A DNA stretch of 64,000 nucleotides. Source: an uncultured Thermoplasmata archaeon (GTDB lineage: Archaea; Thermoplasmatota; Thermoplasmata; UBA10834). Both the position numbers and the translations under genes were made by a program. Below are positions 14,146 to 46,641 of the stretch, piece by piece. The stretch lies in assembly GCA_963748615.1 (NCBI GenBank), contig CAVVJQ010000003.1, forward strand, positions 194,258 to 258,257, in the 5' to 3' direction. Numbering within the stretch: position 1 is the first letter of the stretch; each line of letters starts with the position of its first letter. Under the pieces are notes generated by a model. That model did not search any database. It was given only the letters and a program-made list of their open reading frames with translations, and had not been told where the DNA came from.

Positions 14146-15141
14146 TCAGAACTCGTCGTCGGTCATCTGGTCGAAGATGTAGTTATCCCACTCCCGTACC
14201 CCAAGGACGATCTCGAGCTCCTGAGGGGTCAGAAGTGGCTTGTCATACATGGCAACATCATCGATCGCGATCCTCGGGCATGCAGTGGACACATACGCAT
14301 CGAAGCCCAGCGATTTCAGCTTATCTGGATCGAACTTATCCATCATGATGAGCACTGCATCCCTCTTCTTCCACCGCAGGAGTTTACGAAGCTCGCGCGC
14401 GCGTCTGAGCCGACGCTGTCCTATCTTCTCACCTATGATTATCCCGAATGTACGTGCACGCTGAGCCTTCTCGATCACTGCGTGCCTCTGCCTCAGCATC
14501 CTGTCCTTTATCTGATCTATCTCCTGAGGCGCCTCGAGGTTTGGATCCAGTACCACCACTTTCTTGCCCGTTGCCAGATGTACGCCCAGCGCGTGGAACG
14601 TCCCAGATCCGATCAGGAGGTAGCTGTTGACATCATTCCCGATGGATAACGCAGATGTGTAATTGCACCCTAGCACTTCACCTGCATGAGATATCCTCGT
14701 ATCGCCTTCGCCCAGTTTGATCTTAAGGCCCAGGCTTTCCAGGCCCTCTATCACAGGCTCAAGGTCTGTCAGATGAGGGGTCGTCGCTAGGACTCCGACA
14801 GGTTCGGTCAGCATGTCCACGGATTTTTTTAGCTGATCTATCAATGGAACATTGGACCTTGCAGGAACGAAAATGACAGGCTTCGCATACTTGATAGACG
14901 GGATAGAGGAATGCCCCACATTGATAATGGCATCGACCAGATCGAATAGTGAGCTGGGCACATCGCAGGCTCCAAAGCAAGGCTCGGCAACAACGACGAC
15001 CTCGGCGCCCGATTTGTTCTCGATGTCTTCGGCATATTGATACGCCCTCCGCTTCAGCCCTTCGGGCACCTGCAGAGCGACGACTCTAACCTTCAGCCTC
15101 TTTATCTCGGATATCGCGCTGGCGAGGTCAACATCGTACAA
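14146..15141 (-). CDS. dph2: 2-(3-amino-3-carboxypropyl)histidine synthase (diphthamide synthesis, radical SAM-like)
   Basis: YDVDLASAISEIKRLKVRVVALQVPEGLK, EPCFGACD, GSGTFHALG; typical ~330-aa archaeal Dph2. Confidence 0.85.
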   Translation of the reverse strand: MYDVDLASAISEIKRLKVRVVALQVPEGLKRRAYQYAEDIENKSGAEVVVVAEPCFGACDVPSSLFDLVDAIINVGHSSIPSIKYAKPVIFVPARSNVPLIDQLKKSVDMLTEPVGVLATTPHLTDLEPVIEGLESLGLKIKLGEGDTRISHAGEVLGCNYTSALSIGNDVNSYLLIGSGTFHALGVHLATGKKVVVLDPNLEAPQEIDQIKDRMLRQRHAVIEKAQRARTFGIIIGEKIGQRRLRRARELRKLLRWKKRDAVLIMMDKFDPDKLKSLGFDAYVSTACPRIAIDDVAMYDKPLLTPQELEIVLGVREWDNYIFDQMTDDEF

Positions 15142-15267
15142 ACATCCTCACCCCATTCTTGACTCATACCTGTGCAAAGATCAAATCGCTCGGACCGATG
15201 CGCATTTAGGGGTACAGAGACCAACGGTAAAAAACATTGTGCGGAATTGGCACGGCTCAGATGATGA

Positions 15268-15783
15268 TCACTTGGCCGCGCCTGGGCCCTTCTCCACATC
15301 GAGATAGCATGGCGTAGGCAATTTGATGGCCGCTCTCTTCAACGCAAGCTTAGCGGTGATGAAGTGGTTCGCGGTAGTCTCGAGCGTGATGATCTCCTGG
15401 TCAGGCTGGATCCTTGCTGCGGTCCCTATAGGCTTCCCGAAAGCCGCTCGCATGCCTTCGGAGATACGGTCAGCTCCTGCACCGGTCGCAATCTTGTTCT
15501 CCCTGAGCACCTGGTGAGGATATACTCTGATCTTGAGGTGATAGCCAGTCGAACCGATCTTCTTCGCAAGCAACCTGTTGGCGGAGATACGCGCCGCCTC
15601 GAGCGCTATATGTCGGATCTGGCACTGTTCCACGGCCTTGAGCGTTATCCTCACAGGATAATCCGCCTTGACGCCGTGCTCGAACTGGGTGATTCTCGAT
15701 GCTGGAACGCCGCCCATGTACTCTCTGCGGCAGTAAGCCTGCCCTTTTATCTCTCTGTACATGCTTGCTGGCTTGCGTGACAT
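15268..15783 (-). CDS. rpl10e: 50S ribosomal protein L10e (uL16)
   Basis: [37 protein letters not shown]. Confidence 0.93.
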
Positions 15784-17880: not shown

Positions 17881-18227
17881 CTGGATGCGCCCCGAGACAT
17901 CAGGTTGAGTACCGTTATTTCTCAATGCTGAGAATCAACCATGATTGTCACATCTCCACCTTTTATACTCCTCGCGTGGGCATATTGTACCATAAGAAGG
18001 AGAAGTTGAGTCAGATGATGAGAAAGGATGAGCGTTTCGCGCTCTTGGTCGGCAAGGCGTTCCTGCGGGAGATCCATGCAGGGCATAGAGACAACGCCAT
18101 AGCCTTCGGAAGGGCATTCCTCCTGTCACTGGGACACGCAGACCCAGAACCCAGTGAATACAATGGGGCCCTCGCGGATCGATCAAGCGGCGACTCCATG
18201 GCCACTGCAACGCACTAAGGCCACAGA

Positions 18228-19451
18228 TCAAATGCTTATAGGCTTGTGGCCACCGCGTCTTAATGTGCGCTTGAGTAGAGGCGGGGTCAACAAAGCCGTG
18301 ACCAGACCCATGAACACGACAACGGAGTAGAGATCCGCTCCGATAAGGCCCTTCGTGAGTCCGTAATATGCGATTATGAACGCTATCTCGAGCCTGGGCG
18401 TCATTCCGACACCGACCGAGATGGCATCCCATTTCTTCATTCCAGAGTAATACGCAGGTATAGCACATCCGACTATCTTGGAAGCGAACGCTACCGCTGT
18501 GAGGGCTATGCTGAGAAGGATCATATCCCACATGGAACCAAGGTTCACTGCTGTGCCCAATGATACGAAGAACAGTGGTACGAACAGCGCCTCCAGATAC
18601 TGCGTGCCCTTCCTGAATCCGTCCCTGAGGGCGGACCCGGAGAATGCCGTGCCCGCAACGAATGCACCGACGATCGCAGATATCTGAATTGCTTCTGCCA
18701 CGAATGCATACATGAAAGCGATGGCAAGCGCGAGTATGAATCCGCTCATGGGCATCTTCCGTCTGTAACCCGAGATCTGCACATTGAAGACCAATTTCGC
18801 AAGGAACTTCGACCCGATCCATGCACCAAGTACGACGAATAGGACGGCTGCGACCACCAGGATGGCGATCCCGATCATATCGAACTCTCCAGAGCCGAGG
18901 CTCTTGGAAATGCCCAGCACAACCATACCGAGTATGTCGTCCACCACCGCTGCGCCGACTATGGCATAAGCCACAGGAGTGCCGATCAGTCCCAACTCAG
19001 CAATCACGCTGGCGGTGACCGCGACGCTGGTTGCCACGAGCGTGGCCCCTATGAACACCGCCTCGATCTCGTACCCGAAAAGATACGCTGTGGCGAAGCC
19101 AGCCCCCCAAGGGACGATGACGCCGCCCAATGCAATCATTATGGATTTCCTGGTGTAGATTTCTTTGAGGTCGCATTCGAGACCTATCATGAACAACAGG
19201 ATGATGGCACCCATCTCGGCGAGCATCATGATAGATTCGGGGAGTCCGGATTCGCCATCCGCTCCTCCCTGGATGATGCTGAGCACGCTCGGACCAATGA
19301 TCACTCCGATCACGATGTAACCTATCACCTTCGGCTGGCCGAACCTGGTGAAGAGGAACGCTGCGACCAAGGCCACCGCTAGAAGGAAGGTGAGTTCGAA
19401 CCAGACATCCTCGAGTAGTCTGTCCAGCAGCGAGTTTATGAACGCGTCCAT
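18228..19451 (-). CDS. cation:proton antiporter, CPA2 (Kef/NapA-like), no KTN/RCK domain
   Basis: About 12 hydrophobic helices; GAAVVDDILGMVVLG and GAFVAGTAFS motifs typical of Na_H_Exchanger/CPA2. Confidence 0.8.
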   Translation of the reverse strand: MDAFINSLLDRLLEDVWFELTFLLAVALVAAFLFTRFGQPKVIGYIVIGVIIGPSVLSIIQGGADGESGLPESIMMLAEMGAIILLFMIGLECDLKEIYTRKSIMIALGGVIVPWGAGFATAYLFGYEIEAVFIGATLVATSVAVTASVIAELGLIGTPVAYAIVGAAVVDDILGMVVLGISKSLGSGEFDMIGIAILVVAAVLFVVLGAWIGSKFLAKLVFNVQISGYRRKMPMSGFILALAIAFMYAFVAEAIQISAIVGAFVAGTAFSGSALRDGFRKGTQYLEALFVPLFFVSLGTAVNLGSMWDMILLSIALTAVAFASKIVGCAIPAYYSGMKKWDAISVGVGMTPRLEIAFIIAYYGLTKGLIGADLYSVVVFMGLVTALLTPPLLKRTLRRGGHKPISI

Positions 19452-19504: not shown

Positions 19505-22500
19505 CTATACACCGTAAACGCGTCCCTTCACCAGCCAAAGGTCCACGAGATCGCCCGTATCCTTCACAAGGAACCCTGAGACATACTCCCTCGGCACACC
19601 CTCAAGATAGACTCCGAATTGAACGGCCCAATTGCCCCATGACCTGCCGACCAACCTACCTAACGCAGGGATGTTGGGGGCAATGGACACGACCATGGTG
19701 AGTCTGTTCTCCAAAGCGCCCGCAACCCCCAGGACCTTCAGCATCTTGGGCGTGCCTATCTCGAACAGTAGCTCGAATCGGATATACAGACCGGAGAAGA
19801 AGCTCGATGGGAATTGAGGGTATGCTATTGGGTTGCTTGCCCGCCCAAGGTTAACAACGAATGTCGCGAAAGTATGGATGAGCCATCGGAGCACGTCCAC
19901 GATCGCGTCTCCCGTCACCACGAAGGATGTCCTGAACCCGAAGCCAGCGGTCCCGCTCGCATCGCTCAGGGTCACCTCGATGTATATGATGATCTCATGG
20001 ATCACCTCTTTCACGATGGACAGCAGGTTCTCGATGAAGTGGGATAGGATGCGCTTGCCCAGAAGCTTCACGAAATCCAAGGACGCCGATACCTCGGACA
20101 GCTTCGTCTCTTCGAATGCCTCCTTGAAAGCTTTGAAGAGAGCCTTCGCTATGAAATCCGATGTGGAGAGGAGCACGGATGCACCGTTCGAATCGCTCTT
20201 GGTCCCGTCACGAAGCAGCCATCTGGGGCCGCCGTCCCATGTACGCTGATGTGTACGTGCATCGTTCGCGCTGTCACTCAGCGTGGGTGTGACATCGACG
20301 ATCTTGCCTTCCGAATCCCTGAGTATCAGAGAGTCGCCGTCATTGAACGGGTCCCCGGAATAGCCATTGTCTATCGATGTCTGCGGGAATGTGAAGACCT
20401 TGAGGCCGTTCGCTGGGATGGTGCCGGATATGGGCAACTCTGTGCTCATGCCATGAGCGGTCTCGATCACCCAACCATCCACGCACCTCGCTTCCGTGAG
20501 CGGATTGTACAGTTCCACCCATTCGCGTCCGGAGTCATCGCCCTGAGGGTTCGCCTCGAACTCGTTGACCACGACATCGGTCGGGAAAGGCGGAGAGTAC
20601 TTCAACCGTAAACCAGCCTCGATCGAAGCGGACATTCCGAGAACGGGTATTGGTATGTTGGAAAGGAAGAGCCCTACACCTGGAAGATCGGATGTCGATA
20701 CCTCGGCGATCTCATATGGCTCTGCTTCGGGGATCACCAGGTCCAGAGCCCAGGTCTCCGCCTTGCAATGGACCTCCACGAACCTCCTCAGGATGATCAT
20801 GAGAGGATCGACGACTACCTCGACGGTGGCATGCTTCAACGATAACGTGCCGTTGACAACGACATCGAACCTTCCGTCAGATAGCCTGGCGATCCTGAAC
20901 CCGAATGATATTCCAGGGCCGAACCTGTCCGTGCATACGATGATCCTGACCAGGTCCTGGGACTTCTTGTACAGCAGATCCGGGAGGTTGGTGCGTACGA
21001 TTATCGTGAAGCCATACATTGTGATGCGCAGCTCCACTGTCCCCACAAGGTCGATGAACAGCTTGACGGCTTTCGCCAGAGCCGAGTCGGCGAACTTCTG
21101 GACGTATTCCTGAAGTAGCTCCACCATCGATTGGGCGGCCTTCGCAACCAATGCTAGCACCCGTGTCGCATACCCCGCGAGCGTCTCGAACGCATCCTGG
21201 AAGAATGTGAAGAGCCGCTCCATGCCATCCTTGATCCATCCGACCAGGGGTTCGATCTTGGACCATAATATCTCATAGAACTTCCTCGCCGCGTTGATGG
21301 CATCCGTCAGAGCGGTGTTCGTAGGATTATAGCCCACATCCTCCAATGGCCATGACGATTGGACAACGACCGGGACGCATACATCCACGAGAATCTGCAC
21401 TCGAGAACTTTCCTCACCGCATATCAGGGAGAGAAGAGAGCAGCTCTCGGACGAGAGCTCGATCTCCACGAGCCCCTTCGCGGAGACCAGCCATTGGGTC
21501 GAGTAGGGAGTGGCGGATGCATTGGACAGCGAAGTCATGTGTGTGTTCGGGTAGTCCTCTTCGGCACGGTCATAATCCCATGGTCGCTTCACCTGGACCA
21601 AGATATCACCCGTGGGAAACAACTGCTCAAGCGAGGAGTACCCGACCGAGGGGTTGTAAGGCACTTCGGTGAGTGGTGGAAGACCGCCTTGGACCACGAT
21701 AGAGAGACTCTCGTTCAAGACGGACGATATCTCATCGGCAGCCTCTCGCTCGCCGTCCCAGAACTCGAACGGAGTGGCCATGTCAACATAGACCGATCGT
21801 TTGTACGAGGAGATGTGACTCTGAGCCAAAGTGGCATTCGCTATGCACTCGATCTGCGCCTCCATGAATGATGCGATCCCAGGGAAACTCCCGGTGCCGT
21901 ATGCGAGCATCGATGCGAATGAATCCACCAGCGGACCAGCGAAGTCATCGTCCGCCTGCCCGATGGACTGATTGAACGCAATCTCGAGGCATTCGACGTA
22001 GATGGAACATCGCGTATCGTAACTCCATGAAGCGGATGTGGACACCCCCCATGCGTCATCGTACCTCACATCGTGCTCGACGATCTCTTCGAGCTGCTGA
22101 CGAACGGACACACCCAGATCAGGTATGTACGAATATCGAGCGCTATCGAGCACCACAGATGCGATGTTGGAGCACATCTCAGTCCTGAGATATTCAGGGA
22201 ATATGCGGGATTTATGATCCTCGATGAAATCGACGAAGCGATCAACCATCTTGTACTGGGTGCTGTACAATGGCAATGATCTAGCCGCGATCATGACGGC
22301 TTCGGGATCGGTACATATGGAGACATCGCCCGCATGGTCGGCCATCATCGAGAACACATCCTCTCCGTCCATTGGGTCGACCGAACAGCTGCTCAAGTCC
22401 ATTGACGATGCGGAGGCGAGATCGAAAGCCAACCTCTGGACGCAATCATACATAAGATCCTTGATCTCCCCCTGGCACTCCTTGAAGACGGGGTAGAACT

Positions 22501-23941
22501 CGACCCACAGATCAGATTCAAGGAGATTGTATTCCGGGACATCGGCATCCACCATGATGTCTCCCACCCAGACGGGATAGAGATTACCAGAGACATCCTC
22601 GACATAGTACACTCTTTCGGGAACTATGACGAGGAAATCAGAGTCGCATGAAAATGTCTCTGAATAGAACCGCGGGGTGTAATCGATCATTTCAAGGCTG
22701 CGCTGCATCCACGAACGGACAGAATCTGCGGAGTCATCTTCCCCGGTCAGGAACTCCATCACGCTGTCGACCGAATTGGATATCGATTCTAGTACCTCGT
22801 CCGCCACGTCAAACAGTCCAAGAAATCCGAGATAGTCCATGTATTTGACCACCAGCATGTCCGCAATACCAGCGATGGCCTGTGCCATCACGATTGTGGG
22901 GTCCAGTCGGAGCTCTCTCAAACCAAGGAACCAAAGGAACAGCTCAGCAGGATCCAGCGAGCACCCCGAGCAGGAGATCATGGCTAGCAGGCCAAGCGTG
23001 CTGCCTCCGCAGACATCGACCACATCCGAGGCAAATGAGCCGTCGATCGACCGGAGCAGCCTTGCCTGCTCCAGAAGCAGCGCGACGGCCACTGCACGGT
23101 ACACATCCACCTCAGTCAGGATCATATCTGTCGTAGAACCGTTGGAATACAACGGCACGCCAAACCCGTCAAGAACCCGATACTGGGACAGCGTCGTCAA
23201 CATGTACATCACCATCTTCCCGATGTCCGAGTACTCTCCGGATGACGCCATCTCGAATGCCCGCAACTTGGATTCGAGGAATGGCAGTGCCGACAACAAA
23301 GGCTTCTCGAAGCACTCATCTCTAGCTAAGACGCAATCCTCAGCCTGGACCGAGACCGAGAAGTTGCCTATGACGACATAGTAAGGATTCGTCGTCTGTT
23401 CTCCGATGGAATCATCCGAGGGAGCAGGGAGGGCTTCGTACTCCATCGATTGATCGTCGATCGTGACTTCGGCGGCCTTCCCATCGTCTGCTGATAGGAG
23501 GTCCATTGTCCTCTTCTCGGCGAAGAACAGGGATCCAGACCAGTTATGGACTTCGATGTTGAAAGCGCCTCGATCACGAGGGAACGAATCGCCGATATAT
23601 GCCTCGACCGTACGAGAATATTCCTCGGATATCAGGGTGTCATTCACCGGATATTCGCTCCATCCAGAAAGGAGTTCGTTGGCCTTGGTCGAAGCGAATA
23701 ATCCCAATTCGGTGTTCACCTCGGATATGGCTGCGTCCATCGATCGAACCATCTCGGCCCTTCGCTCTTCTGAGAGGCGGTCGATCTCCCTCTTCGCGAT
23801 ATATAGACCCGACGCCGTAGATGCGAGAAGGATCACGACGGCTATCACTGAGAACGAGATCTGAGCGGATGTATCGCTCGTTAGTCGATGGCGCACTCTC
23901 CTGCGCGCGCCCGAACCAGCAAGAAGATATTTCACTGTCAT
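19505..23941 (-). CDS. giant (1478 aa) N-terminally anchored protein with one lamin-tail domain (LTD); otherwise orphan
   Basis: Uninterrupted 4.4-kb ORF. Basic N-terminus plus one TM helix (ISFSVIAVVILLASTASGLYIA). LTD signature at aa ~1121-1245 (nt ~20207-20581): VVNEFEANPQGDDSGREWVELYNP..DGWVIE..GDSLILRDSEGKIVD. Confidence 0.8.
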   Translation of the reverse strand: MTVKYLLAGSGARRRVRHRLTSDTSAQISFSVIAVVILLASTASGLYIAKREIDRLSEERRAEMVRSMDAAISEVNTELGLFASTKANELLSGWSEYPVNDTLISEEYSRTVEAYIGDSFPRDRGAFNIEVHNWSGSLFFAEKRTMDLLSADDGKAAEVTIDDQSMEYEALPAPSDDSIGEQTTNPYYVVIGNFSVSVQAEDCVLARDECFEKPLLSALPFLESKLRAFEMASSGEYSDIGKMVMYMLTTLSQYRVLDGFGVPLYSNGSTTDMILTEVDVYRAVAVALLLEQARLLRSIDGSFASDVVDVCGGSTLGLLAMISCSGCSLDPAELFLWFLGLRELRLDPTIVMAQAIAGIADMLVVKYMDYLGFLGLFDVADEVLESISNSVDSVMEFLTGEDDSADSVRSWMQRSLEMIDYTPRFYSETFSCDSDFLVIVPERVYYVEDVSGNLYPVWVGDIMVDADVPEYNLLESDLWVEFYPVFKECQGEIKDLMYDCVQRLAFDLASASSMDLSSCSVDPMDGEDVFSMMADHAGDVSICTDPEAVMIAARSLPLYSTQYKMVDRFVDFIEDHKSRIFPEYLRTEMCSNIASVVLDSARYSYIPDLGVSVRQQLEEIVEHDVRYDDAWGVSTSASWSYDTRCSIYVECLEIAFNQSIGQADDDFAGPLVDSFASMLAYGTGSFPGIASFMEAQIECIANATLAQSHISSYKRSVYVDMATPFEFWDGEREAADEISSVLNESLSIVVQGGLPPLTEVPYNPSVGYSSLEQLFPTGDILVQVKRPWDYDRAEEDYPNTHMTSLSNASATPYSTQWLVSAKGLVEIELSSESCSLLSLICGEESSRVQILVDVCVPVVVQSSWPLEDVGYNPTNTALTDAINAARKFYEILWSKIEPLVGWIKDGMERLFTFFQDAFETLAGYATRVLALVAKAAQSMVELLQEYVQKFADSALAKAVKLFIDLVGTVELRITMYGFTIIVRTNLPDLLYKKSQDLVRIIVCTDRFGPGISFGFRIARLSDGRFDVVVNGTLSLKHATVEVVVDPLMIILRRFVEVHCKAETWALDLVIPEAEPYEIAEVSTSDLPGVGLFLSNIPIPVLGMSASIEAGLRLKYSPPFPTDVVVNEFEANPQGDDSGREWVELYNPLTEARCVDGWVIETAHGMSTELPISGTIPANGLKVFTFPQTSIDNGYSGDPFNDGDSLILRDSEGKIVDVTPTLSDSANDARTHQRTWDGGPRWLLRDGTKSDSNGASVLLSTSDFIAKALFKAFKEAFEETKLSEVSASLDFVKLLGKRILSHFIENLLSIVKEVIHEIIIYIEVTLSDASGTAGFGFRTSFVVTGDAIVDVLRWLIHTFATFVVNLGRASNPIAYPQFPSSFFSGLYIRFELLFEIGTPKMLKVLGVAGALENRLTMVVSIAPNIPALGRLVGRSWGNWAVQFGVYLEGVPREYVSGFLVKDTGDLVDLWLVKGRVYGV

Positions 23942-24078: not shown

Positions 24079-25344
24079 GTGGAGACTGAACAGACTCTCG
24101 TCCTGATCTTCGTAGCGTTTCTAGCTGCGAAAATCGGCGGCGAGATCATGGAACGAATGAAATTACCTGCCGTGACTGGCGAGCTGATGGCAGGGGTGAT
24201 ACTAGGTCCATCGATATTGAATCTCATCACTGAACATGACACATTCTTCGATGTGCTCGCTCAGCTGGGTGCGACATTCCTCCTCTTCTCGGTCGGCATG
24301 GAGACCAAACTCTCTGACCTCAAGAAGGTAGGGATGATCGCTGGATCCGTCGCAGTGTTGGGAGTCATCGTTCCGTTCATCATGGGTTATTATGTTTCGC
24401 TGCTCCTGTTCGCCTCATCGATCGAGGCGATGTTCATCGGCGCCGCGCTGGTCGCAACGAGCGTTGGGATCACTGCAAGGGTGTTGCAGGACCTCAAGAT
24501 GATCAATTCGCAGGAAGCAAAGATCATCCTTGGCGCGGCCGTCGTCGACGACATACTGGCGATGATCGTCCTCACGCTCGTATCAGGAACCGCGACCGGG
24601 AGTCTGACCACGCTGAGTGTCGCTGTCGTCATCGCAGAAGCAGTGTGCTTCGTCGCCATCGTTACCATTCTGGGAACGAGAATAGTGAAGTACGCTTCGG
24701 GCAAGAGAGAGATCAGGCATGACAAGAATGTCAACGGAACTTGGGCAATCCACTACTCGACAAGGGCATTCAAGAGGGACAGCTGGTTCGACAAGCTCGT
24801 CCAGAAGGAGGCTCCCTTCGTCATCATCCTGGTGGTCGTCTTCTTCCTCTCGGCTGCGGCCTCGTTCGTCGGTCTAGCCGCCATAATCGGCGCGTTCTTC
24901 GCGGGACTCATATTCTCAGACACCAAGGACACTTACGAACTGGAACGCAAGTTCGAGCCACTCAACGTTCTTCTGGTCCCGTTCTTCTTCGTTGTCATGG
25001 GTGCGAGGGTCGATTTCGGCAACTTCTCAGCCATCGCCCCATACGCGATCATCCTGACGGTCGTCGCGATCCTGAGCAAACTCATCGGGTGTGGACTGGG
25101 CGCTGCGAAAAGGGGCGAGAAGACTGCGCTCATAGTCGGAGCGGGCATGGTGCCCAGAGGAGAAGTGGGCATCGTAGTGGCCATGATCGGCCTGAACATG
25201 GGGACTATAGGCAATGACATCTACTCCATCATAGTCCTCGTATCCATAGCCACGACAATCTACGCCCCGTTCCTCATCAAGACCATAATCAAGGCGGAGA
25301 ACAAGAAAGGGGGCAAACGAGGTTGGCCTCTCTCGAGCAAGTGA
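24079..25344 (+). CDS. cation:proton antiporter, CPA2 (second paralog), no KTN/RCK domain
   Basis: GAAVVDDILAMIVL, GAFFAGLIFS, multi-TM. GTG start 24079 lies ~32 nt downstream of ATTAAATA (a TATA-like box). Confidence 0.8.
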   Translation: METEQTLVLIFVAFLAAKIGGEIMERMKLPAVTGELMAGVILGPSILNLITEHDTFFDVLAQLGATFLLFSVGMETKLSDLKKVGMIAGSVAVLGVIVPFIMGYYVSLLLFASSIEAMFIGAALVATSVGITARVLQDLKMINSQEAKIILGAAVVDDILAMIVLTLVSGTATGSLTTLSVAVVIAEAVCFVAIVTILGTRIVKYASGKREIRHDKNVNGTWAIHYSTRAFKRDSWFDKLVQKEAPFVIILVVVFFLSAAASFVGLAAIIGAFFAGLIFSDTKDTYELERKFEPLNVLLVPFFFVVMGARVDFGNFSAIAPYAIILTVVAILSKLIGCGLGAAKRGEKTALIVGAGMVPRGEVGIVVAMIGLNMGTIGNDIYSIIVLVSIATTIYAPFLIKTIIKAENKKGGKRGWPLSSK

Positions 25345-25413: not shown

Positions 25414-26814
25414 TTACTCGAAGTCCAGCACGCTCTCGTCGTAGGCCTGTGTGAACGTGAACACCATCTCGTCCCACCAGGTGTCGACCGTGAAGGCCAT
25501 GCCGTAATAGAGCGTGTTCAGACCGTAGAGCTCAGCGTCCTCGATGTCCTCGAACCAGTATGCCGGATTGATCCAATGGCTGCAACAGGTGAAGTAGATC
25601 GATATGCCCGAGGTTCTCAAGATGCCTCCGCCAGCAGCGGTCACATGGTTCTCATACACGACGACTTCATCCACACCCTCGACAATCGCGGTGGTCAGCG
25701 GGAGGAGTTCCGGTATCTTCTGGCCGAGGAGTTCAGCGTACAGACCGAGGTCGATGAACGGCAGCTGCTCTCCCTCGTATGTGGGTATCCTCGGGGTCTG
25801 AGATTCAGCCGACTCGATCGCACCTCTGTAGCTGCTGTCATCCATATAGCCACCCTCGAACATCTCCTTCGCCAGCGCATCGATGCTCTTGACCAGGTTC
25901 GTCACAGGCTCTCCTAGGCGCAGGAATGAAAGCGTCACGTCGGCGCAGTACTCACAGCCCTGTCCAGACTCGGAGACCAGGTTTTCGTAGAAGTCGATAT
26001 AGGAATCAACGACAGCGATTCCCACTTCCTGGACCGTCGGCGAATCCTCAGTCATCACTTCCAGGAATCCAGCATAGCCCATTCCTGGACCAGGCACGAG
26101 GTTGATCGATGCGAACATGTAGTCCGCGATGTACCTGTTCTCGTAGATGACCTCGATCATTGCGTTCAGACAGGCATCGTAGCCGAGGATCGTCAGCTTG
26201 TAGTCCGTATCAACAGTCTCCCTGAGCTGGGTCTGAGCGGCAGCCAATGAGGCAGCGGTCTCAGGAGTTGTCAGCCTTGATACCCAGCCATCAGTGCCGA
26301 TCGCAGGGGAGCTGTCATCGTAGCAGACGCCCCTCCATCCACCGCCGTGGTCCCAGAGCACGAGCATGTAGTAATCAGCCGGGGCGTATGTGAACGCGGT
26401 CACGACGGCCCAAGTCAGCTTGGTGCCATCACCCATGTCCACCTCGCCAGGGCAGTCTGCCTCAGGGAACAAATCGCAGTCACAATCCAGTTCCTGTGTC
26501 TCGGCATCGTAGTGTGATACTCCTTCTTCGATCAGGAGCCAGTGGGTGCCTTCAACATACGACCATGTATCCAGCAGCACGATGATGGTCACGCCGTTCT
26601 TGGATCCGACGGATTCCATTTCGAGCAGATCGTCGATCGCATAGCTCTCAAGGTTGTTGTCCCCGTCCAAGTAGACGAAGACGGTCCACGTGCCTGGCCC
26701 TTCTTCATCCACGGCTTTCGGGGCGCTGCCAGCATTCGCGATCATGCCGGTCATCGCCATCGAAGCGGACAGCAACAAACCCATAATCAAAACACAAGTT
26801 GGTGCTCTTCTCAT
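25414..26814 (-). CDS. secreted clostripain-like cysteine peptidase (family C11), paralog 1
   Basis: Signal-like MRRAPTCVLIMGLLLSASMAMTGMIANA. Motifs WTVFVYLDGDNNLE, HYMLVLWDHGGGW (His) and LTILGYDACLNAM (Cys). ATG 26814 is preceded by GGGGGAAG; the track start 26922 is probably too long. Confidence 0.75.
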   Translation of the reverse strand: MRRAPTCVLIMGLLLSASMAMTGMIANAGSAPKAVDEEGPGTWTVFVYLDGDNNLESYAIDDLLEMESVGSKNGVTIIVLLDTWSYVEGTHWLLIEEGVSHYDAETQELDCDCDLFPEADCPGEVDMGDGTKLTWAVVTAFTYAPADYYMLVLWDHGGGWRGVCYDDSSPAIGTDGWVSRLTTPETAASLAAAQTQLRETVDTDYKLTILGYDACLNAMIEVIYENRYIADYMFASINLVPGPGMGYAGFLEVMTEDSPTVQEVGIAVVDSYIDFYENLVSESGQGCEYCADVTLSFLRLGEPVTNLVKSIDALAKEMFEGGYMDDSSYRGAIESAESQTPRIPTYEGEQLPFIDLGLYAELLGQKIPELLPLTTAIVEGVDEVVVYENHVTAAGGGILRTSGISIYFTCCSHWINPAYWFEDIEDAELYGLNTLYYGMAFTVDTWWDEMVFTFTQAYDESVLDFE

Positions 26815-26840
26815 TTCTCTTCCCCCGTTAGTAACCATCC

Positions 26841-26860
26841 GATGGACATTTATGTCCATC
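26841..26860. promoter_or_regulatory. perfect 9+9 inverted repeat between the TATA-like box and the C11-1 start codon
   Basis: GATGGACAT-tt-ATGTCCATC. A TATA-like box (minus-strand TTATTATA) lies at ~26893-26900, so the palindrome falls at or just after the predicted TSS. Confidence 0.5.
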
Positions 26861-26953
26861 ACAGGTGTACTGACTCGCATGTTACATTGAGCTATAATAA
26901 TCTTCCTCGCTCCAAGCACCAATATAGGACAAACATGGAACGTGAGGACTATG

Positions 26954-27768: not shown

Positions 27769-29322
27769 ATGCTGACAAAAGACTCATCGTTAGCAAAGGG
27801 CTTGCCAAAGACCACGGAGAGCCTGTGTCCGGAGTGTCTGTCTATCATCCAAGCGACCATCCGCGAAGATAACGGGAAGGTCATTATGGAGAAGACATGT
27901 CCGCAGCACGGCGATTTCAAGGACGTCGTCTGGTCAGATGCAAAGACATACCTGAGGGTCGAGAAGTGGGCAAAGGATGGGGTGGGAGTCATTGATCCTG
28001 CCATACCAAAGGCGAAGCAGTGCCCGTTCGATTGCGGCCTCTGCGATCTTCACCTCAGCCATACCGCGCTTGCCAATCTCGATCTCACGAACAGGTGCAA
28101 CCTGAAGTGTCCTATATGCTTCGCGAACGCCAATTCTGCAGGTTACGTGTACGAACCGGACTATGACACAGTCGTAAAAATGCTCGAGCTACTGCGATCG
28201 CAGCGACCGGTGCCATGCCCAGCAGTCCAATTCTCCGGCGGGGAACCGACGATCTATCCACACTTCTTCAAGGTCATAAAGGCCGCCAGGGACATGGGTT
28301 TCGCACAGGTCCAAGCTGCGACGAACGGGATAGAATTCGCAAAGAGTCTGGAATTCTGCAAGAAGGCGAGCGAGGCCGGTCTTAACACATTGTACCTACA
28401 ATTCGATGGGATGAGGTCTGAGATTTACGAAAGGGCAAGAGGCAAGGACCTACTCGCCACGAAGCAGAAGGTCGTTGAGAATTTCAGGCAGTTGTCAACG
28501 CACCCATCGATAGTGCTGGTTCCCACGATAGTCAAAGGGGTCAACGACGACCAGGTCTGGCCCATACTCGACTATGCGCTCAGGAACATGGACGTCATCA
28601 GGGGAGTCAACTACCAACCCGTCGCATTCACTGGCAGGATGACCCGTGAGGAATTGGTGGAGGGGAGATACACGCTCACCGACCTGATACACGATGTCGA
28701 GAAGCAGTCAGGTGGGAAGATCAAGGCGTCTGACTGGTACCCGGTCCCGACAGTCGTGGCGGTTTCCGAACTCGTCGGTGCCATCGCGGGGAGGGACATG
28801 GTCACATTCACGAACCACACGCACTGCGGACTCGCGACCTACCTATTCGTGAAGGACAATGAACATGTGGTCCCGCTCACGAAATTCATAGATGTCGATT
28901 CACTGTTCACAGAACTGTACGAGCTGGCGAGGAAGGCAAGCGGTAAGAAGGTCCAGTTGTTCACGAAGCTGAAGGCGTACAGCCTGATCAAGGAACACAT
29001 CAGGAAGGACCAGCTGCCCGAGGGCATGAACGTCATGGAGTTCCTGAACGTGCTGAAGCGGGTCTTCTCAGAGGACACGAAGAAGGGGTTGTCCAAGTTC
29101 AGCTGGAACATGATGTACGTCGGCGCGATGCACTTCATGGACTCGTACAACTATGACATCGAGAGGGTGAAAAGATGCAGCATACATTACACCACCCCTG
29201 ATATGAAGCTGATACCGTTCTGCGCCTACAACTCTGGCCCGGTGTACAGGACCGATGTGGAGAAGCGCTTCTCCACCCCATTGGACGAGTGGAGAAAGAA
29301 GCACGGTGATCAGTACACGTGA
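27769..29322 (+). CDS. tes: radical SAM tetraether lipid synthase (Tes / GDGT-MAS family)
   Basis: N-terminal zinc ribbon CPECLSII...CPQHGDF, CPFDCGLC, radical SAM CNLKCPICF, SGGEPT. About 517 aa, immediately followed by ferredoxin and GGR. Confidence 0.75.
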   Translation: MLTKDSSLAKGLPKTTESLCPECLSIIQATIREDNGKVIMEKTCPQHGDFKDVVWSDAKTYLRVEKWAKDGVGVIDPAIPKAKQCPFDCGLCDLHLSHTALANLDLTNRCNLKCPICFANANSAGYVYEPDYDTVVKMLELLRSQRPVPCPAVQFSGGEPTIYPHFFKVIKAARDMGFAQVQAATNGIEFAKSLEFCKKASEAGLNTLYLQFDGMRSEIYERARGKDLLATKQKVVENFRQLSTHPSIVLVPTIVKGVNDDQVWPILDYALRNMDVIRGVNYQPVAFTGRMTREELVEGRYTLTDLIHDVEKQSGGKIKASDWYPVPTVVAVSELVGAIAGRDMVTFTNHTHCGLATYLFVKDNEHVVPLTKFIDVDSLFTELYELARKASGKKVQLFTKLKAYSLIKEHIRKDQLPEGMNVMEFLNVLKRVFSEDTKKGLSKFSWNMMYVGAMHFMDSYNYDIERVKRCSIHYTTPDMKLIPFCAYNSGPVYRTDVEKRFSTPLDEWRKKHGDQYT

Positions 29323-29333
29323 GGTGATTATCT

Positions 29334-29531
29334 TTGAAGAAGGACCAACTCGATGAGTTCGAAGTCAACATAGACAAGTGCATGCACTGCGGCGCTTGCG
29401 TGGGCTCGTGCCCTCAGAATGCCATCTACCTCAGGGAGGTAGTGCTTGAATTCAATGATAGCTGCACCTTGTGCAAGAGGTGCATAAAGGCGTGCCCGGT
29501 CGGTGCGATCAAACTCGTGGAGAGTGCCTGA
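29334..29531 (+). CDS. 2x[4Fe-4S] ferredoxin
   Basis: CMHCGACVGSCP and CTLCKRCIKACP. Confidence 0.88.
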   Translation: MKKDQLDEFEVNIDKCMHCGACVGSCPQNAIYLREVVLEFNDSCTLCKRCIKACPVGAIKLVESA

Positions 29532-29532
29532 T

Positions 29533-30720
29533 ATGAAGCGAGACTATGACATTGTGATCGTGGGTGCGGGACCTGCAGGTTCCATGACTGCGAAGTGGGC
29601 AGCGAAGAATGGCGCTCGCGTCCTAATGGTGGAGAAACGTCAGGAGATCGGCTCGCCGGTCAGATGCGGTGAAGGGATCTCCAGGGCGTGGCACGACTCC
29701 GTCGGGCTCAAGCTGGATAAGAAGAGCGTGGCGTGGGAAGTCAAGGGCGCGAAACTCGTAGCACCCAACGGCACTCCGTTCTACTTGGGAGAGAAGATGG
29801 CGGGGGACGAGGTCGGCATCGTCATCGACCGTGTCTTCTTCGACAAGCAGCTTGCGAGAGATGCCATAAAGGCGGGCGCGGACCTTCAGCTCAAAGCTTC
29901 GGCGACCAAGCTCATCAAGGAAGGGGACAAGGTCGTGGGAGTGCACGTTAATTCGATGGATGGATCCCGAGATATAAGCTGCGGCTGCGTCGTCGCGGCC
30001 GATGGCTTCGAATCCCAGGTAGGCAGATGGGCAGGCATCGACACTAGCCTCGCGCCAAGGGACATCACCACCTGCTTCCAGTACAGACTCACAAACATCG
30101 ATATCGAGCACGAATACTGCGAATTCGTGCTGGGGAGCAAAGCGCCGGGAGGATACATCTGGCTGTTTCCGAAGAACGAAGATACCGCCAATGTCGGGAT
30201 CGGCATGCAGCTCACGAAGTTGCACGAGACAGCTGACGTCAAGAAGCATCTGGACAAGTTCATCCAAGGTGACCCCAGACTCAGGAAAGGGATGCCACTG
30301 GAGTTAGTCAGCGGTGCGGTTTCGATATGTGCTCCCATCGAGAAGACTATAGGCGATGGGGTCCTCATCGTGGGTGACGCTGCTAGACAGATCGACCCGA
30401 TCACCGGTGGCGGAATATCGAACTCATGCAAGTCGGGAAAGGTCGCAGGAGAGGTCCTTGCGAAAGCAACCCGAGAGAACGACTTCAGCGAGAAGTCGCT
30501 CATGCGATACGAGAACGGCTGGCGCAACCTGATCGAGAACCAGCTTTACAGGAACTGGCTCGCGAAGGAGAAGCTCGTCACCCTATCTGACGAGACTTTC
30601 GACAAGGTGATTGCGACATTGAATGAAGTGGGTGTGGAGAAGATGTCCACACTCGCGATACTGAAGGCGATAGAGGATAAGTATCCGGAACTCGTCAAGG
30701 AATTCCAGGAATTCCTCTGA
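29533..30720 (+). CDS. digeranylgeranylglycerophospholipid (geranylgeranyl) reductase, FAD-dependent
   Basis: MKRDYDIVIVGAGPAGS, RCGEG, PGGYIWLFPK, VGDAARQIDPITGGGI. ATG 29533 lies 1 nt after the ferredoxin stop. Confidence 0.88.
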   Translation: MKRDYDIVIVGAGPAGSMTAKWAAKNGARVLMVEKRQEIGSPVRCGEGISRAWHDSVGLKLDKKSVAWEVKGAKLVAPNGTPFYLGEKMAGDEVGIVIDRVFFDKQLARDAIKAGADLQLKASATKLIKEGDKVVGVHVNSMDGSRDISCGCVVAADGFESQVGRWAGIDTSLAPRDITTCFQYRLTNIDIEHEYCEFVLGSKAPGGYIWLFPKNEDTANVGIGMQLTKLHETADVKKHLDKFIQGDPRLRKGMPLELVSGAVSICAPIEKTIGDGVLIVGDAARQIDPITGGGISNSCKSGKVAGEVLAKATRENDFSEKSLMRYENGWRNLIENQLYRNWLAKEKLVTLSDETFDKVIATLNEVGVEKMSTLAILKAIEDKYPELVKEFQEFL

Positions 30721-30775
30721 TAAGACTACACATATACACTCACGACGGTTCGGATACAGGCGAAGGAGTGACCGG

Positions 30776-32329
30776 ATGAGATTGCTCGAACGCCTGACCG
30801 AGAATAGGCGGAACGTGGTCATAGTAGCGGGCTTGGTAATACTGCTCGCAGCTTCGATCAGATTCTATCATATCGGCTGGAGCTTCTCCAACAACGGAGT
30901 CGACGAGGGCGTCATGCTCCAGCGATCGCTGCTCATTGATTACGGGTTCGACCTCTACACAGAACTCCCCTGCGACCAGGCACCATTCGCATTCTACATC
31001 GGAGCGATATTCAGCGGAGATGTCGTCACACTTCGCTCATTGGAGGTGGCGCTATCAATATTCGCGATACTCGCATGTATGGTCGTGGCCAGGAGGATCA
31101 GCGGGGACATCGCCATGCTCGCAACCGGACTATTCCTTGCGGTCGACTTCGCGTTCCTTCGGGAGTCGCGGTTGTACTCACTCGATGGGATGGCCAGTTA
31201 CTTCCTTGCGTTCTCGTTCTTGGCCCTTGTATACTACATACAGAAGGAGAGCAGATGGGCCCTTGCCGCCGGAGGTCTGCTGATGGGGGTATCCGCTTCC
31301 GTGAAGCTCTTGGGCGCTTTCGGGGTCTTGGGCGTCCTCCTATTCTTCACCTTCGAGGCGATCAAGGAGAGATCCCTCGGCTCGAAGAGGGTCGTGGACA
31401 TGGCGCTGTTCCTCTCAACATCCGTATTGCCCTTGGTTCTTTTCCTGGCGGTCCTGGACACATCGGCGATGCTCCAGGGAATGATATTCAATCAGTCCCA
31501 CAGGGATTTCGAACCGTTCCTGAAGATAGCGATCCTGGCATACCTCGGTTTGAACCTATCGTACATACTCCCGTTCATCTACGCGCGCAGCTTATGGTCT
31601 GCAGGGCGAGAGATACGTCTGCTGATGGTCGTCTCCGCGGTTCTGCTGCTTCTGATGATATTCCAACCATTGGTGTTCTTCCACCACCTGGTCCTGATGA
31701 GTCCTTCCCTCGCCATACTTGCGGGTGTAGTGACTGCCGAGACCGTCAAGACCAAAAAAGGCGTCAAAAGGAGGACCAACCTCGGAAAGATGCTTAAAAA
31801 GAACACCGCGATGAGACGCTTCGCGGCAGCCGTCATACTCATGGACGTGGTCGCATCAGCAGGTCTAGCGTTCTACGGTATCGCCGCCCAGGGAGAGCCG
31901 TCTGAGATAACTTATGCGGAGATGCTACGTGACATAACGGATAGCATCGAGAACCTAACAGGCAACGACACATGGGTGATCTGCGGCGACCCGTTGATCG
32001 CGACCCAGGCCGGTGCGCTCACACCACCACAGGTCGCCAACGTCGCATATAGACGATATCCGCAACTCACATTAGACGATGTGACGAACGCGATAGACGA
32101 ATACGATGTTTCCGTGGTGGTCGTATGCTTCCGCCTGAAGGACATAGGAGGACTGACAGCATACCTTCGAGAGAACAACTACTCGATGATATTGCCCAAG
32201 TACATCGGTAGCGGAAACGACACCGTGCTGGACCTCTTCGAGGACAGCATAGACCCGGTATACTTCTACATCAAGAACGATCTCGCATTCGCGCTCGATA
32301 TACCTGTCCTGATGAGGATCAAGCCTTAG
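30776..32329 (+). CDS. GT-C fold membrane glycosyltransferase (GT39/ArnT/PMT-like)
   Basis: The N-terminal two-thirds is polytopic (more than 10 hydrophobic helices) with an early-loop DEGV motif after IRFYHIGWSF. Soluble C-terminal domain. Confidence 0.6.
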   Translation: MRLLERLTENRRNVVIVAGLVILLAASIRFYHIGWSFSNNGVDEGVMLQRSLLIDYGFDLYTELPCDQAPFAFYIGAIFSGDVVTLRSLEVALSIFAILACMVVARRISGDIAMLATGLFLAVDFAFLRESRLYSLDGMASYFLAFSFLALVYYIQKESRWALAAGGLLMGVSASVKLLGAFGVLGVLLFFTFEAIKERSLGSKRVVDMALFLSTSVLPLVLFLAVLDTSAMLQGMIFNQSHRDFEPFLKIAILAYLGLNLSYILPFIYARSLWSAGREIRLLMVVSAVLLLLMIFQPLVFFHHLVLMSPSLAILAGVVTAETVKTKKGVKRRTNLGKMLKKNTAMRRFAAAVILMDVVASAGLAFYGIAAQGEPSEITYAEMLRDITDSIENLTGNDTWVICGDPLIATQAGALTPPQVANVAYRRYPQLTLDDVTNAIDEYDVSVVVVCFRLKDIGGLTAYLRENNYSMILPKYIGSGNDTVLDLFEDSIDPVYFYIKNDLAFALDIPVLMRIKP

Positions 32330-33527
32330 GTTTGAACGTCATCTCCTTTGAGAAGGTCCACAGGGAGTTCGCGAAGAAGTTGAATGTGCTGACCAGGAAG
32401 ATCACTATCACTTGGGCGAGCAGGAGATACACGCTGGCCTTGTCTTGACCGATCCCGATCGCTGGGAATACGCTCTCCACGAACAGATACAACAGGATCA
32501 GGTTCAGCATGAGGCCATCGAGACTGACCAACAGGAACTGGGGATACTGTATGCGTATCTTGCCCTTCGATCGGAAAGTCCACCACCGATTCCAGATGAA
32601 ATTGTTGGTGTCCGCGATGACGAACGCGATTGCCTCCGCCAGAAGATAGTAGAGCATGAACAGCTCGACGCCGGCCCACAGGATCGCAAGGTTGATGACC
32701 GTGCCGATCCCGCCCACGAAGGCGAACTTTATGTACCTCGCGAGCCAGGGTTTCTTGTGCTCGTAGAGCTTGATGCAGTGATCGATGTACTTCAGGGTGA
32801 CCGAAGTCCCCAGTTTGCTCTTGCCAGCCTTCCTATCTGCGAATGTGATCGGAACCTCGTCGACCTTCTTGATCCTTCCCTTGACGAGTATCTCAAGGGC
32901 GATCTTGTAACCGATAGGGTTCAGCTCGACCCCATCTATCACTTCGCGTTTGATGGCGAAGAAGCCCGACATCGGATCCTTCACCTTGGTCAGGCCCTTG
33001 GCCAGGAGGGTAGCACACTTGGATATCATGCGTCTGTGGAAGGGCCAGTTCTCCACCATTCCACCCTTTATGTACCTGCTCCCGATGACCATGTCAGCAT
33101 TCTCGTCGACCAATTTCGCGATCATCGCGGGTATCTTCTCTGGGGGATGGCTGAGGTCTGCGTCCATGACCACGAGAATCTCGCCCTTCGCAGCATCGAA
33201 TCCCTCGAGCACGGCGGTGGAGAGGCCGAGCTTGCCTGCTCGGTGTATCACCTTGACATCGTACTTCTTCCCCAGGTCATCGGCCAACTGGCCAGTGCCG
33301 TCCGGGCTGTTGTCATCTACAATGACCATCTCGACCTCGATGCCCGATGTCGAGCACGCAACGTTGGTTCTCCTGACCAGTTCCTCGACATTGTCCCGTT
33401 CATTGTATGTCGGGACTATCACGGAGATCGTATTGGTTCCCCCCTGAGCCGAAGCCGTCTCTTGTAGATTAATGATGCTACAATGCTCACAGAGATCACT
33501 ATCAGGACCGCCGCGATGGCGACCCAT
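32319..33527 (-). CDS. polyprenyl-phosphate mannose/glucose synthase (GT2, Dpm1-like) fused to a GtrA-like membrane domain
   Basis: ISVIVPTYNERDNVEELV, VIVDDNSPDGTG, VVMDADLSHPP; C-terminal FAFVGGIGTVINLAILW GtrA-like helices. Start ambiguous: ATG 33527 overlaps dedA by 109 nt, while GTG 33422 forms a GTGA overlap with the dedA stop. Confidence 0.8.
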   Translation of the reverse strand: MGRHRGGPDSDLCEHCSIINLQETASAQGGTNTISVIVPTYNERDNVEELVRRTNVACSTSGIEVEMVIVDDNSPDGTGQLADDLGKKYDVKVIHRAGKLGLSTAVLEGFDAAKGEILVVMDADLSHPPEKIPAMIAKLVDENADMVIGSRYIKGGMVENWPFHRRMISKCATLLAKGLTKVKDPMSGFFAIKREVIDGVELNPIGYKIALEILVKGRIKKVDEVPITFADRKAGKSKLGTSVTLKYIDHCIKLYEHKKPWLARYIKFAFVGGIGTVINLAILWAGVELFMLYYLLAEAIAFVIADTNNFIWNRWWTFRSKGKIRIQYPQFLLVSLDGLMLNLILLYLFVESVFPAIGIGQDKASVYLLLAQVIVIFLVSTFNFFANSLWTFSKEMTFKPKA

Positions 33528-33964: not shown

Positions 33965-34004
33965 CCCGGGATCACCCAGGGATGAGAAGGTATTGATGAT
34001 ATCC

Positions 34005-39763: not shown

Positions 39764-39992
39764 CGAAGAGGTTAATGTACAAATCCGCACATTAATAGTT
39801 CGGGGATACCAGCGCATAGGATATGACGTGATAGCAGGGAGCATGAGGCGAAATCAGAACCGCTCTAGACACGGGCATGCAAGAACGACTGGCCGAATCG
39901 AGCCACGATAACATTGAACTAGCGCCGATGCATTCCGGGTATTGCGAGATGAACAGACCGCATAGGTTCTCATCTTGCATGGGGGGAAAATC

Positions 39993-46545: not shown

Positions 46546-46641
46546 CGAATACGGTATCTGGCCAGGGGCATATCCATCACCTGGCTACATGCATGCTACT
46601 CATGCGATCGACGAGATATTCATGTCATCGGGAAAGGCACC

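Follow-up and report, generated by a model that had tools for sequence, protein, structure and literature searches.

A giant membrane-anchored protein with a lamin-tail domain, conserved in Thermoplasmata that include the Methanomassiliicoccales, is a candidate envelope protein of wall-less archaea

Results

A constrained gene for a 1478-residue protein with a single membrane helix

The window analyzed here is a 64,000-nucleotide (nt) stretch of contig CAVVJQ010000003.1, from an uncultured Thermoplasmata archaeon, and the element under study is a giant gene at positions 19505..23941 of its minus strand (stop codon included). According to the list of open reading frames (ORFs) and the translation, the gene is complete, with an ATG start and 1478 codons read without interruption. 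A preliminary description, made from the sequence alone, had presented the product as a membrane-anchored orphan with a single N-terminal hydrophobic helix, a large acidic, Cys-containing and presumably extracytoplasmic part, and one assignable module, a lamin-tail domain (LTD). Its account of the gene and of the helix was borne out: in a Kyte-Doolittle profile (19-residue window), a strong hydrophobic segment is found only at amino acids (aa) 28-49, where it reaches a maximum of 2.18, and elsewhere hydropathy never exceeds 1.6. The single transmembrane helix and the isoelectric point of 4.42 support an anchored protein with a large acidic part; the whole protein has 20 Cys.

Comparison with the genes of two ~90%-identical relatives (loci L004 and L029) gave an overall ratio of nonsynonymous to synonymous substitutions (dN/dS) of 0.09-0.10, and of 0.02-0.08 over aa 871-1478. 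The giant gene is under strong purifying selection, and such a ratio rules out a frame that is open by chance. A search of the whole protein against Pfam, NCBIfam and the PDB sequences returned nothing credible besides the LTD; NCBIfam matches to ATP synthase subunit a and to an autoinducer synthase, and a PDB match of the 31-sequence family profile to coronavirus NSP2 (E 0.008), were dismissed as noise.

The family is widespread among Thermoplasmata

The label of orphan did not hold. A protein search returned 96 near-full-length homologues from uncultured Thermoplasmata, two at 90% identity and the others at 46-59%, with lengths of 1441-1506 aa where the sequence is complete. The named ones come from Thermoplasmata/Thermoplasmatota metagenome-assembled genomes, including Euryarchaeota archaeon RBG_13_57_23, and are called either "lamin tail domain-containing protein" or "hypothetical protein." In an alignment of 31 homologues the mean column identity is 65%, and invariant residues are spread over the whole length. 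A repeat of the protein search with a more diverse alignment (A5) recovered the same 97 proteins and brought nothing further, save that one of them, P0097, proved to be a distant member.

We then scanned one genome per GTDB species and found 74 homologous loci. More than half (39 of 74) form a close clade of uncultured Thermoplasmata, which includes isolate UBA10834 and the complete chromosomes CP070748.1 and OY970070.1. Another 31 come from Thermoplasmata of the Methanomassiliicoccales type, for the most part Methanomethylophilaceae, Methanomassiliicoccaceae, Methanogranum and RumEn M2; their proteins are 24-34% identical to the giant protein, and most of them align over ~aa 14-1472 or most of the length, identities being 24-29% where the alignment spans nearly all of it. 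The last four match the LTD alone. A search seeded with a Methanogranum homologue added 75 further homologues, among them TALC_00432 of "Thermoplasmatales archaeon BRNA1" (an enrichment-culture genome) and several "Candidatus Methanoplasma sp." proteins. In the RumEn M2 locus (L071, 5776-9523 and 11178-13234), two genes, that of the giant protein and that of the PolD large subunit, are each broken into overlapping ORFs, which are probably assembly frameshift errors rather than pseudogenes. The preliminary description had considered that homologues might be restricted to this genome and show signs of decay; what we find is a wide family and a dN/dS of 0.09-0.10.

A wider superfamily was delineated by an exhaustive HMMER search of 1.84 billion cluster representatives with a profile of aa 1-1115, that is, without the LTD. 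It gave 306 clusters at E<=1e-3, of which 146 reach E<=1e-30, with full-length members mostly of 1250-1600 aa and up to 2145 aa. The best-matching stretches of the query recur at ~aa 22-420 and ~aa 780-1116, which, on this sequence evidence, we take as the conserved chassis of the superfamily. A tblastn search of the PLSDB plasmids with a distant member, aimed at haloarchaeal DUF7286 genes, gave nothing relevant, and we found no literature on a lamin tail domain in Thermoplasmata or Methanomassiliicoccales, or on DUF7283-DUF7289. The family is already present in databases under a domain-based name and is without a characterized member.

Predicted domain layout and the lamin-tail domain

Two AlphaFold2 models were built, each from a 57-sequence alignment: one of aa 1-1120 (mean predicted local distance difference test score, pLDDT, 71.8; predicted TM-score, pTM, 0.57) and one of aa 760-1478 (mean pLDDT 65.4, pTM 0.56). 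All coordinates of the parts described here are on the minus strand. The protein begins with a basic tail (aa 1-25, RRRVRHR, 23867..23941) that, in the translation and the N-terminal alignment, varies in length and sequence within the family. It is followed at aa 26-49 (23795..23866) by a conserved A-Q-I-S-F-S motif and the single transmembrane helix, a class III or signal-anchor candidate according to hydropathy and alignment. The next part, aa 50-215 (23297..23794, block pLDDT 57-90), is modelled as a membrane-proximal stalk, in which a 64-residue helix (aa 30-93) that begins with the transmembrane segment would lead to another helix (aa 101-119) and then to an antiparallel sheet (aa 122-215) with strands of up to 24 residues. 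At aa 219-710 (21812..23287, pLDDT mostly 75-95), two mainly helical regions (219-430 and 479-710) are predicted with a small beta unit between them. The stalk and the helical part, ~aa 22-420, form an N-terminal module, found again in other giant proteins, with limits judged from the best-stretch ranges of the representative search.

Beyond these regions, aa 717-862 (21356..21793, most blocks pLDDT 79-93) are modelled as mixed beta structure ending in a long hairpin (813-833, 844-862). Both models then place at aa 876-963 (21053..21316), according to DSSP, a ~75-residue helix (aa 876-951) and a short second helix, with pLDDT below 50 in both, so that their placement in space is of low confidence. 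Both also predict a beta-meander (969-1071) or sandwich at aa 969-1115 (20597..21037). The stretch of aa ~780-968, together with aa 969-1115, makes up a second conserved module, which recurs in many distant homologues and shows the strongest constraint within the protein (dN/dS 0.02-0.03).

The LTD follows at aa 1121-1245 (20207..20581), with an Ig-like fold. It is the only Pfam family of the giant protein (PF00932, aa 1121-1217), with a score of 34.5 bits that is borderline relative to the cut-off of 34.3. We accepted this assignment because Foldseek matched the domain, in the aa 760-1478 model, to the Ig-folds of lamin A/C and B1 (1ifr, 7yvd_C, 7crg, 6ghd, 3jt0) with a probability of 1.0, at target-normalized TM-scores of 0.41-0.51, and because the LTD of one Methanomassiliicoccales homologue scores 53.5 bits. 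Among 29 diverse superfamily members, nine have an LTD; other members bear PKD, Big_5, TSP3, DUF11/CLIPPER, InlK_D3, transglutaminase-elicitor, Peptidase_C39_2 or metallophosphoesterase modules. Judged from this distribution, the LTD is accessory, probably one of several interchangeable extracellular modules, and its replacement by alternatives such as PKD, Big_5, transglutaminase or C39 peptidase modules suggests a surface-display scaffold.

The C-terminal part, aa 1246-1478 (19508..20206), is predicted by the second model to be an alpha/beta domain, with helices at 1260-1278, 1288-1313 and 1344-1366 and strands at 1314-1343 and 1385-1477. Its block pLDDT is mostly 60-89, down to 45 near aa 1400-1410; it has a dN/dS of 0.03-0.07 and is conserved in distant members. 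There is no hydropathy peak in this domain, which is hence not a membrane segment. The two long helical stretches and the hydrophobic, beta-like C terminus read earlier from the sequence thus find counterparts in the models, as helices at aa 876-963 and 1260-1313 and as the alpha/beta domain of aa 1314-1477, where block pLDDT is mostly 63-89.

The statement that the rest of the protein cannot be placed also stands: Pfam, NCBIfam, PDB and Foldseek searches (the last against PDB and BFVD) assigned it to no characterized S-layer or adhesin family. For the aa 1-1120 model, Foldseek found nothing significant in the PDB (best E 8e-3, TM-score 0.05) and no match in BFVD. Matches of the C-terminal model to porins, LptD and BamA (E 1e-4 to 1e-2) have TM-scores of ~0.1 and an rmsd of ~25 Å and were set aside as artefacts of long beta-meanders. 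Matches to complement C3, MTP and vitellogenin, the last two obtained with the N-terminal model, were set aside as noise (probability <=0.06; TM-scores ~0.05 for MTP and vitellogenin). At the level of these models, some 90% of the protein is without a detectable relative of known structure, which would make it a source of new folds as well.

A prepilin-like motif precedes the membrane helix

Among the close homologues, 56 of 57 have D-x-x-[G/A]-Q-[V/I]-S-F-[S/A] directly before the hydrophobic helix, the lone exception (P0012) being called from an internal Met so that its N terminus is not included; G/A, Q, S and F of this motif are all but invariant. Across the superfamily this motif widens to [G/A]-[R/Q/K/N/S/T]-[V/I/M]-[S/P/T]-F, as in DESA followed by RVPFAMVAVLILML. 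A regular-expression scan of the window and seven related loci found the motif only in the giant proteins themselves. Such an arrangement has the layout of a class III (prepilin-like) signal peptide, with a charged N terminus, G or A at position -1 in every homologue inspected and a hydrophobic helix next. A residue R, K or N at position +1, frequent in the giant family, is unusual for class III signals under FlaFind-type rules.

The preliminary description had noted a loose resemblance to class III signals together with a missing K/R-G. The latter holds for the window protein, which reads S-A before Q, with Ser rather than Lys or Arg at position -2. The resemblance itself was strengthened by the family-wide G/A at -1 and by the Methanomassiliicoccales homologues, which carry a classical K/R-G ahead of NMPF, and weakened by the searches and reports on pilus components given below. 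From the motif, we conclude that the N terminus is a candidate prepilin-like signal anchor with a putative cleavage site.

DUF7286 (PF23957) is the only Pfam profile that the N terminus matches with any consistency: its first ~25-55 positions are hit by 14 of 22 fragments of 85 aa from superfamily N termini, at a best E of 1.1e-5. Whole relatives score 12-18 bits over profile positions 1-56, against a cut-off of 27 bits, and the window protein has no match at E<=1, so that membership of the giant proteins in DUF7286 is not supported.

Two loci of distant homologues deserve description. In L081 (5932-13993), the 1689-aa homologue P0145 lies amid five small proteins with N-terminal hydrophobic helices, and a 1747-aa S8 peptidase is encoded upstream. 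The small proteins weakly match DUF7285, DUF7287, DUF7311 (26.8 bits) and DUF7266; the DUF7285 match (E 3.7e-4) belongs to the gene ending 564 nt upstream of P0145, and its Pfam number is adjacent to that of DUF7286. One of the small proteins starts NRQA-QLSVF, echoing the motif of the giant proteins. Such small proteins flank the L081 homologue only, and this setting suggests an origin in a cluster of pilin-like proteins. In L078 (16396-19960), a gene weakly matching Arc_PepC_II, the C-terminal domain of archaeal A24 prepilin peptidases, lies 4.4 kb from distant homologue P0121, and it was seen near this homologue only. Another giant protein, of >1533 aa and bearing LTD and CLIPPER/DUF11 domains, is encoded in this locus.

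Based on these data, the giant protein could be a modular type IV pilin-like protein, resembling minor or tip pilins or the Sulfolobus solute-binding proteins with class III signals: an A24 peptidase would trim the basic N terminus, and the helix would either enter a short pilus-like fibre or hold the membrane, displaying the extracellular part. Beyond the invariant G/A before a polar +1 residue and the K/R-G of the Methanomassiliicoccales, the neighbours of the L081 homologue and the A24-type gene of L078 argue in its favor, and the modelled ~64-residue helix followed by an antiparallel sheet recalls the pilin layout. However, no pilus genes (ATPase, platform or small pilins) were found near the giant gene in the window, in the close clade or in the Methanomassiliicoccales loci, and Methanomassiliicoccus is reported to lack the secretion ATPases of type IV pili (Makarova et al. 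2016, PMC4858521). Moreover, Pilin_N and Class_IIIsignal of Pfam did not match any of the 22 N-terminal fragments at E<=10, no solved pilin was among the PDB matches of the N-terminus profile at E<=10, and the window protein has Ser at -2. We regard a pilin-like protein as possible, on the unlikely side.

A tetraether lipid synthesis cluster is the deeply conserved neighbor

In the close clade, ~24 kb around the giant gene are syntenic, in the order GT4, GT2-GtrA, PMT-like, geranylgeranyl reductase (GGR), ferredoxin (Fd), radical-SAM, TrmB, CPA2 (divergent), giant gene, CPA2 (same strand, ~50 nt downstream), SerRS, L10e and Dph2. The downstream CPA2 cation:proton antiporter of the window (18228..19451, minus strand, Pfam Na_H_Exchanger E 1.3e-57) starts 53 nt after the giant gene and is present in all close-clade loci. 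A second CPA2 antiporter (24079..25344, plus strand, Pfam E 1.7e-61) is the divergent upstream neighbor, and it is missing in the close-clade loci L011, L013, L017 and L019. No CPA2, TrmB or C11 peptidase gene lies near the giant gene in the Methanomassiliicoccales loci. A constant association with CPA2 antiporters or C11 peptidases, as had been envisaged, is therefore not observed: adjacency to CPA2 is confined to the close clade, and the C11 neighbor to the ~90% relatives L004 and L029. On this synteny, functional coupling of the giant protein to either was rejected. A 295-aa ORF at 17935-18822 (minus strand), without a family match, was rejected as a shadow ORF; it overlaps the downstream CPA2 gene, with which it shares the strand though not the frame, and its low-identity "conservation" mirrors that gene.

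The deeply conserved neighbor is a lipid cluster, with CPA2 and C11 being lineage-specific. In the window, this cluster (27769..30720, plus strand) consists of the radical-SAM tetraether lipid synthase Tes (27769-29322; NCBIfam NF045702, 643.7 bits against a cut-off of 450; PDB 7TOL, GDGT-MAS, E 1.5e-156), a 65-aa 2x[4Fe-4S] ferredoxin read from the sequence (29334-29531) and a digeranylgeranylglycerophospholipid reductase-type GGR (29503-30720). Tes and GGR stand immediately upstream and divergent in all 27 Methanomassiliicoccales-type loci (within L043-L073) whose upstream flank extends for at least ~1.8 kb, and Tes lies ~2.2 kb upstream in the close clade, while the giant proteins of the two groups share only ~25% identity. 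Downstream of the giant gene, the Methanomassiliicoccales-type loci have the NOG1 GTPase, the PolD large subunit and RpoD. The setting is that of housekeeping genes without mobile-element context: Tes/GGR lie on one side, and the opposite flank has SerRS and L10e in the close clade and NOG1 and PolD in the Methanomassiliicoccales.

In the window, positions 27769-35051 look like an envelope-biogenesis island, conserved in the close clade, in which Tes, ferredoxin and GGR are followed by a PMT-like glycosyltransferase (30776-32329), an AglJ/DPM-synthase-like GT2 enzyme (32319-33527) whose orthologues have a GtrA domain, a small ORF and a GT4 enzyme (34005-35051). Among distant members, P0254 (L080) has FtsY upstream and a UbiA-family prenyltransferase gene 40 nt downstream (8286-9302). 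A CDP-alcohol phosphatidyltransferase gene (15063-15698) lies 7 kb farther along, making L080 a second, independent case of lipid-gene neighbors. Some other distant members have RNA polymerase and EF-1beta upstream and MscS downstream.

This arrangement raises the alternative that the giant protein is a partner of Tes-Fd-GGR in membrane-lipid or envelope biogenesis, for example one that organizes or stabilizes the tetraether monolayer from outside, or that tethers or supplies a second outer membrane where one is present. The persistence of Tes at the locus despite low identity of the giant proteins, the L080 case, the glycosyltransferase and PMT-like genes flanking the cluster in the close clade and the double membrane suggested, from poor data, for M. 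luminyensis (PMC4243693) are consistent with it. On the other hand, the genes are divergent and form no operon, other distant members adjoin RNA polymerase and MscS genes, and two cultured members of homologue-encoding lineages, M. alvi (PMC10673518) and ISO4-H5 (PMC5011839), have a single membrane. In addition, the N-terminal half is modelled as largely helical, with no continuous beta-groove of the AsmA/TamB/VPS13 type, and the Foldseek matches to porin/LptD and MTP/vitellogenin are noise. The link to Tes-Fd-GGR is suggestive and could reflect inherited gene order; we consider a dedicated lipid-related role doubtful.

Topology, glycosylation and the host envelope

Four N-x-S/T sequons are conserved in the 31-sequence alignment. 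Three of them (N100, N133 and N193), all located in the modelled membrane-proximal stalk, are found in 28-31 of the 31 sequences, with S/T interchange at N133 and N193, and the fourth is N1030. By the positive-inside rule the N-terminal tail is predicted to be cytoplasmic. The basic N terminus, the single transmembrane helix, the acidic remainder, the conserved sequons and the extracellular modules of other members together indicate that the bulk of the protein is probably extracytoplasmic, in an N-in/C-out orientation, and it is probably N-glycosylated.

The preliminary description had placed this protein in a lineage that may lack a classical wall, and the published morphology of cultured Methanomassiliicoccales relatives agrees. 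Cryo-EM of Methanomethylophilus alvi Mx-05 shows one membrane and no wall or S-layer, with fibrillar appendages of up to 300 nm that the authors ascribe to Flg_new adhesins (PMC10673518), and thin sections of ISO4-H5 show a membrane only, without wall or S-layer (PMC5011839). Methanomethylophilaceae genomes encode homologues of the giant protein. A regular surface array (S-layer) built from this protein, which its large size, acidity, single copy, conservation, membrane anchor and conserved sequons might suggest, is very improbable, since these two organisms from homologue-encoding lineages have no such layer and the protein has no sequence or fold similarity to solved S-layer proteins. What is retained of the surface or envelope scaffold proposed earlier is a probable anchored envelope protein. 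A membrane-anchored glycoprotein or scaffold fits a wall-less cell.

Other features of the window

Three paralogous clostripain-family (Peptidase_C11) genes lie within 30 kb, at 25414-26922 (minus strand), 39975-41315 (plus) and 54580-55893 (plus). The first, with TrmB on one side and the upstream CPA2 gene on the other, is the one seen only in the ~90% relatives; the product of the third has a hydrophobic segment at the N terminus, suggesting that it is secreted or anchored. A 407-aa ORF at 45322-46545 (minus) has a Cas12f1-like TNB domain (TnpB-type, typical of IS200/IS605 elements), and at its upstream end it runs into the predicted start of an M20 peptidase ORF (46348-48099). An MttB-family methyltransferase gene (57019-58578, plus) is a single 519-aa ORF without in-frame stop, which makes its product a non-pyrrolysine MttB homologue. 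No methanogenesis genes were found in the window, which would fit a non-methanogenic relative of the Methanomassiliicoccales. The window also holds a 992-aa MMPL-family (RND-type) transporter (50593-53571, minus) and, at 5821-7272 (plus), a 483-aa ORF that no Pfam family matches at E<=1e-5.

Discussion

Based on the constraint, spread and synteny of the giant gene and on the predicted topology of its product, we favor, with a probability of about one in two, the reading that it is a vertically inherited core-genome gene for an N-terminally anchored, extracellular, multi-domain envelope protein of wall-less Thermoplasmata close to the Methanomassiliicoccales. In this model, the short basic N terminus would remain in the cytoplasm, and the prepilin-like [G/A]-Q-x-S-F motif, possibly processed by a prepilin peptidase, would lead into the single hydrophobic helix that anchors the protein in the cytoplasmic membrane. 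Some 1430 acidic, probably N-glycosylated residues would extend outside as an elongated multi-domain stalk, arranged from the membrane outward as a helix/beta-sheet base, two helical regions, the long hairpin, the 75-residue helix, the beta-sandwich, the LTD and the C-terminal alpha/beta domain. The invariant chassis would consist of the N-terminal module and the module of aa 780-1116, with the LTD as an exchangeable extracellular module. The most likely role would be that of a membrane-anchored surface or glycocalyx scaffold, or of an adhesion or binding protein, rather than that of a crystalline S-layer.

Several points weigh against this reading. The N-terminal motif may be a mere signal anchor, as the absence of Pilin_N, Class_IIIsignal and solved-pilin matches, of pilus genes at the loci and of pilus ATPases in Methanomassiliicoccus would indicate. 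Of 17 conserved Asn, 4 lie in sequons, with ~2.4 expected, an enrichment that is not significant. The confidence of the models is moderate (pTM 0.56-0.57), and in them the long helix and the packing between domains are unreliable. Finally, the scaffold is a default reading of the role, and it leaves unused the conserved adjacency of Tes-Fd-GGR, which hints at a role related to lipids.

Among the methanogens common in the guts of humans and animals are the Methanomassiliicoccales, which, like their uncultured relatives, have no S-layer or wall; a second membrane in some of them is a matter of debate. A strongly constrained, single-copy and probably surface-anchored protein of 1300-1500 residues, conserved across this order and its sister clades, is an obvious candidate protector or organizer of such a wall-less membrane, and it may serve as a surface marker or target, cultured Methanomassiliicoccales relatives being available. 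If the link to Tes-Fd-GGR is functional, it would connect envelope proteins with archaeal lipid biology; if it is not, the giant protein is another large hypothetical surface protein. A more ambitious scenario, which we hold to be a long shot, would make it the principal envelope organizer of wall-less Methanomassiliicoccales-type archaea: a formerly prepilin-like giant, related to DUF7286, that has dispensed with the pilus machinery, is co-inherited and co-regulated with Tes-Fd-GGR, shapes or stabilizes the bare tetraether membrane, tethers or supplies a second membrane where present, and has a ~1100-residue chassis of folds without a solved relative.

Returning to the anchored envelope protein that we favor, it can be compared with four known systems. 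It shares with the prokaryotic LTD surface proteins a genuine LTD Ig-fold with the NEFE..NP.G.D...EWVELYNP signature. In contrast to them, the LTD makes up 8% of the giant protein and is missing from most superfamily members, and the conserved chassis has no relation either to lamins or to the hydrolase domains with which LTDs are usually combined in bacteria. Bacterial AsmA/TamB/YhdP-type lipid transporters resemble it in having an N-terminal single-pass anchor, more than 1200 aa, an envelope location and adjacent lipid-synthesis genes. Unlike these transporters and VPS13, the giant protein is modelled as a chain of mixed helical and beta domains: the DSSP assignments show no continuous, repeating hydrophobic beta-groove, and no significant match was found by sequence or by Foldseek.

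The remaining two comparisons concern the N terminus. DUF7286, an uncharacterized archaeal family with a 1000-position profile, also comprises very large proteins and matches the N-terminal motif, to which its similarity to the giant proteins is confined. The class III proteins, such as modular pilins and the Sulfolobus solute-binding proteins, differ in that the giant proteins have no Pilin_N, Class_IIIsignal or solved-pilin match and no assembly genes nearby. They have in common a short charged N terminus, a small residue at -1 and a hydrophobic helix of ~20 residues, which would stay on the mature protein, with large non-pilin domains attached to it. Taken together, we rate the giant family among the large modular archaeal surface proteins with prepilin-like anchors.

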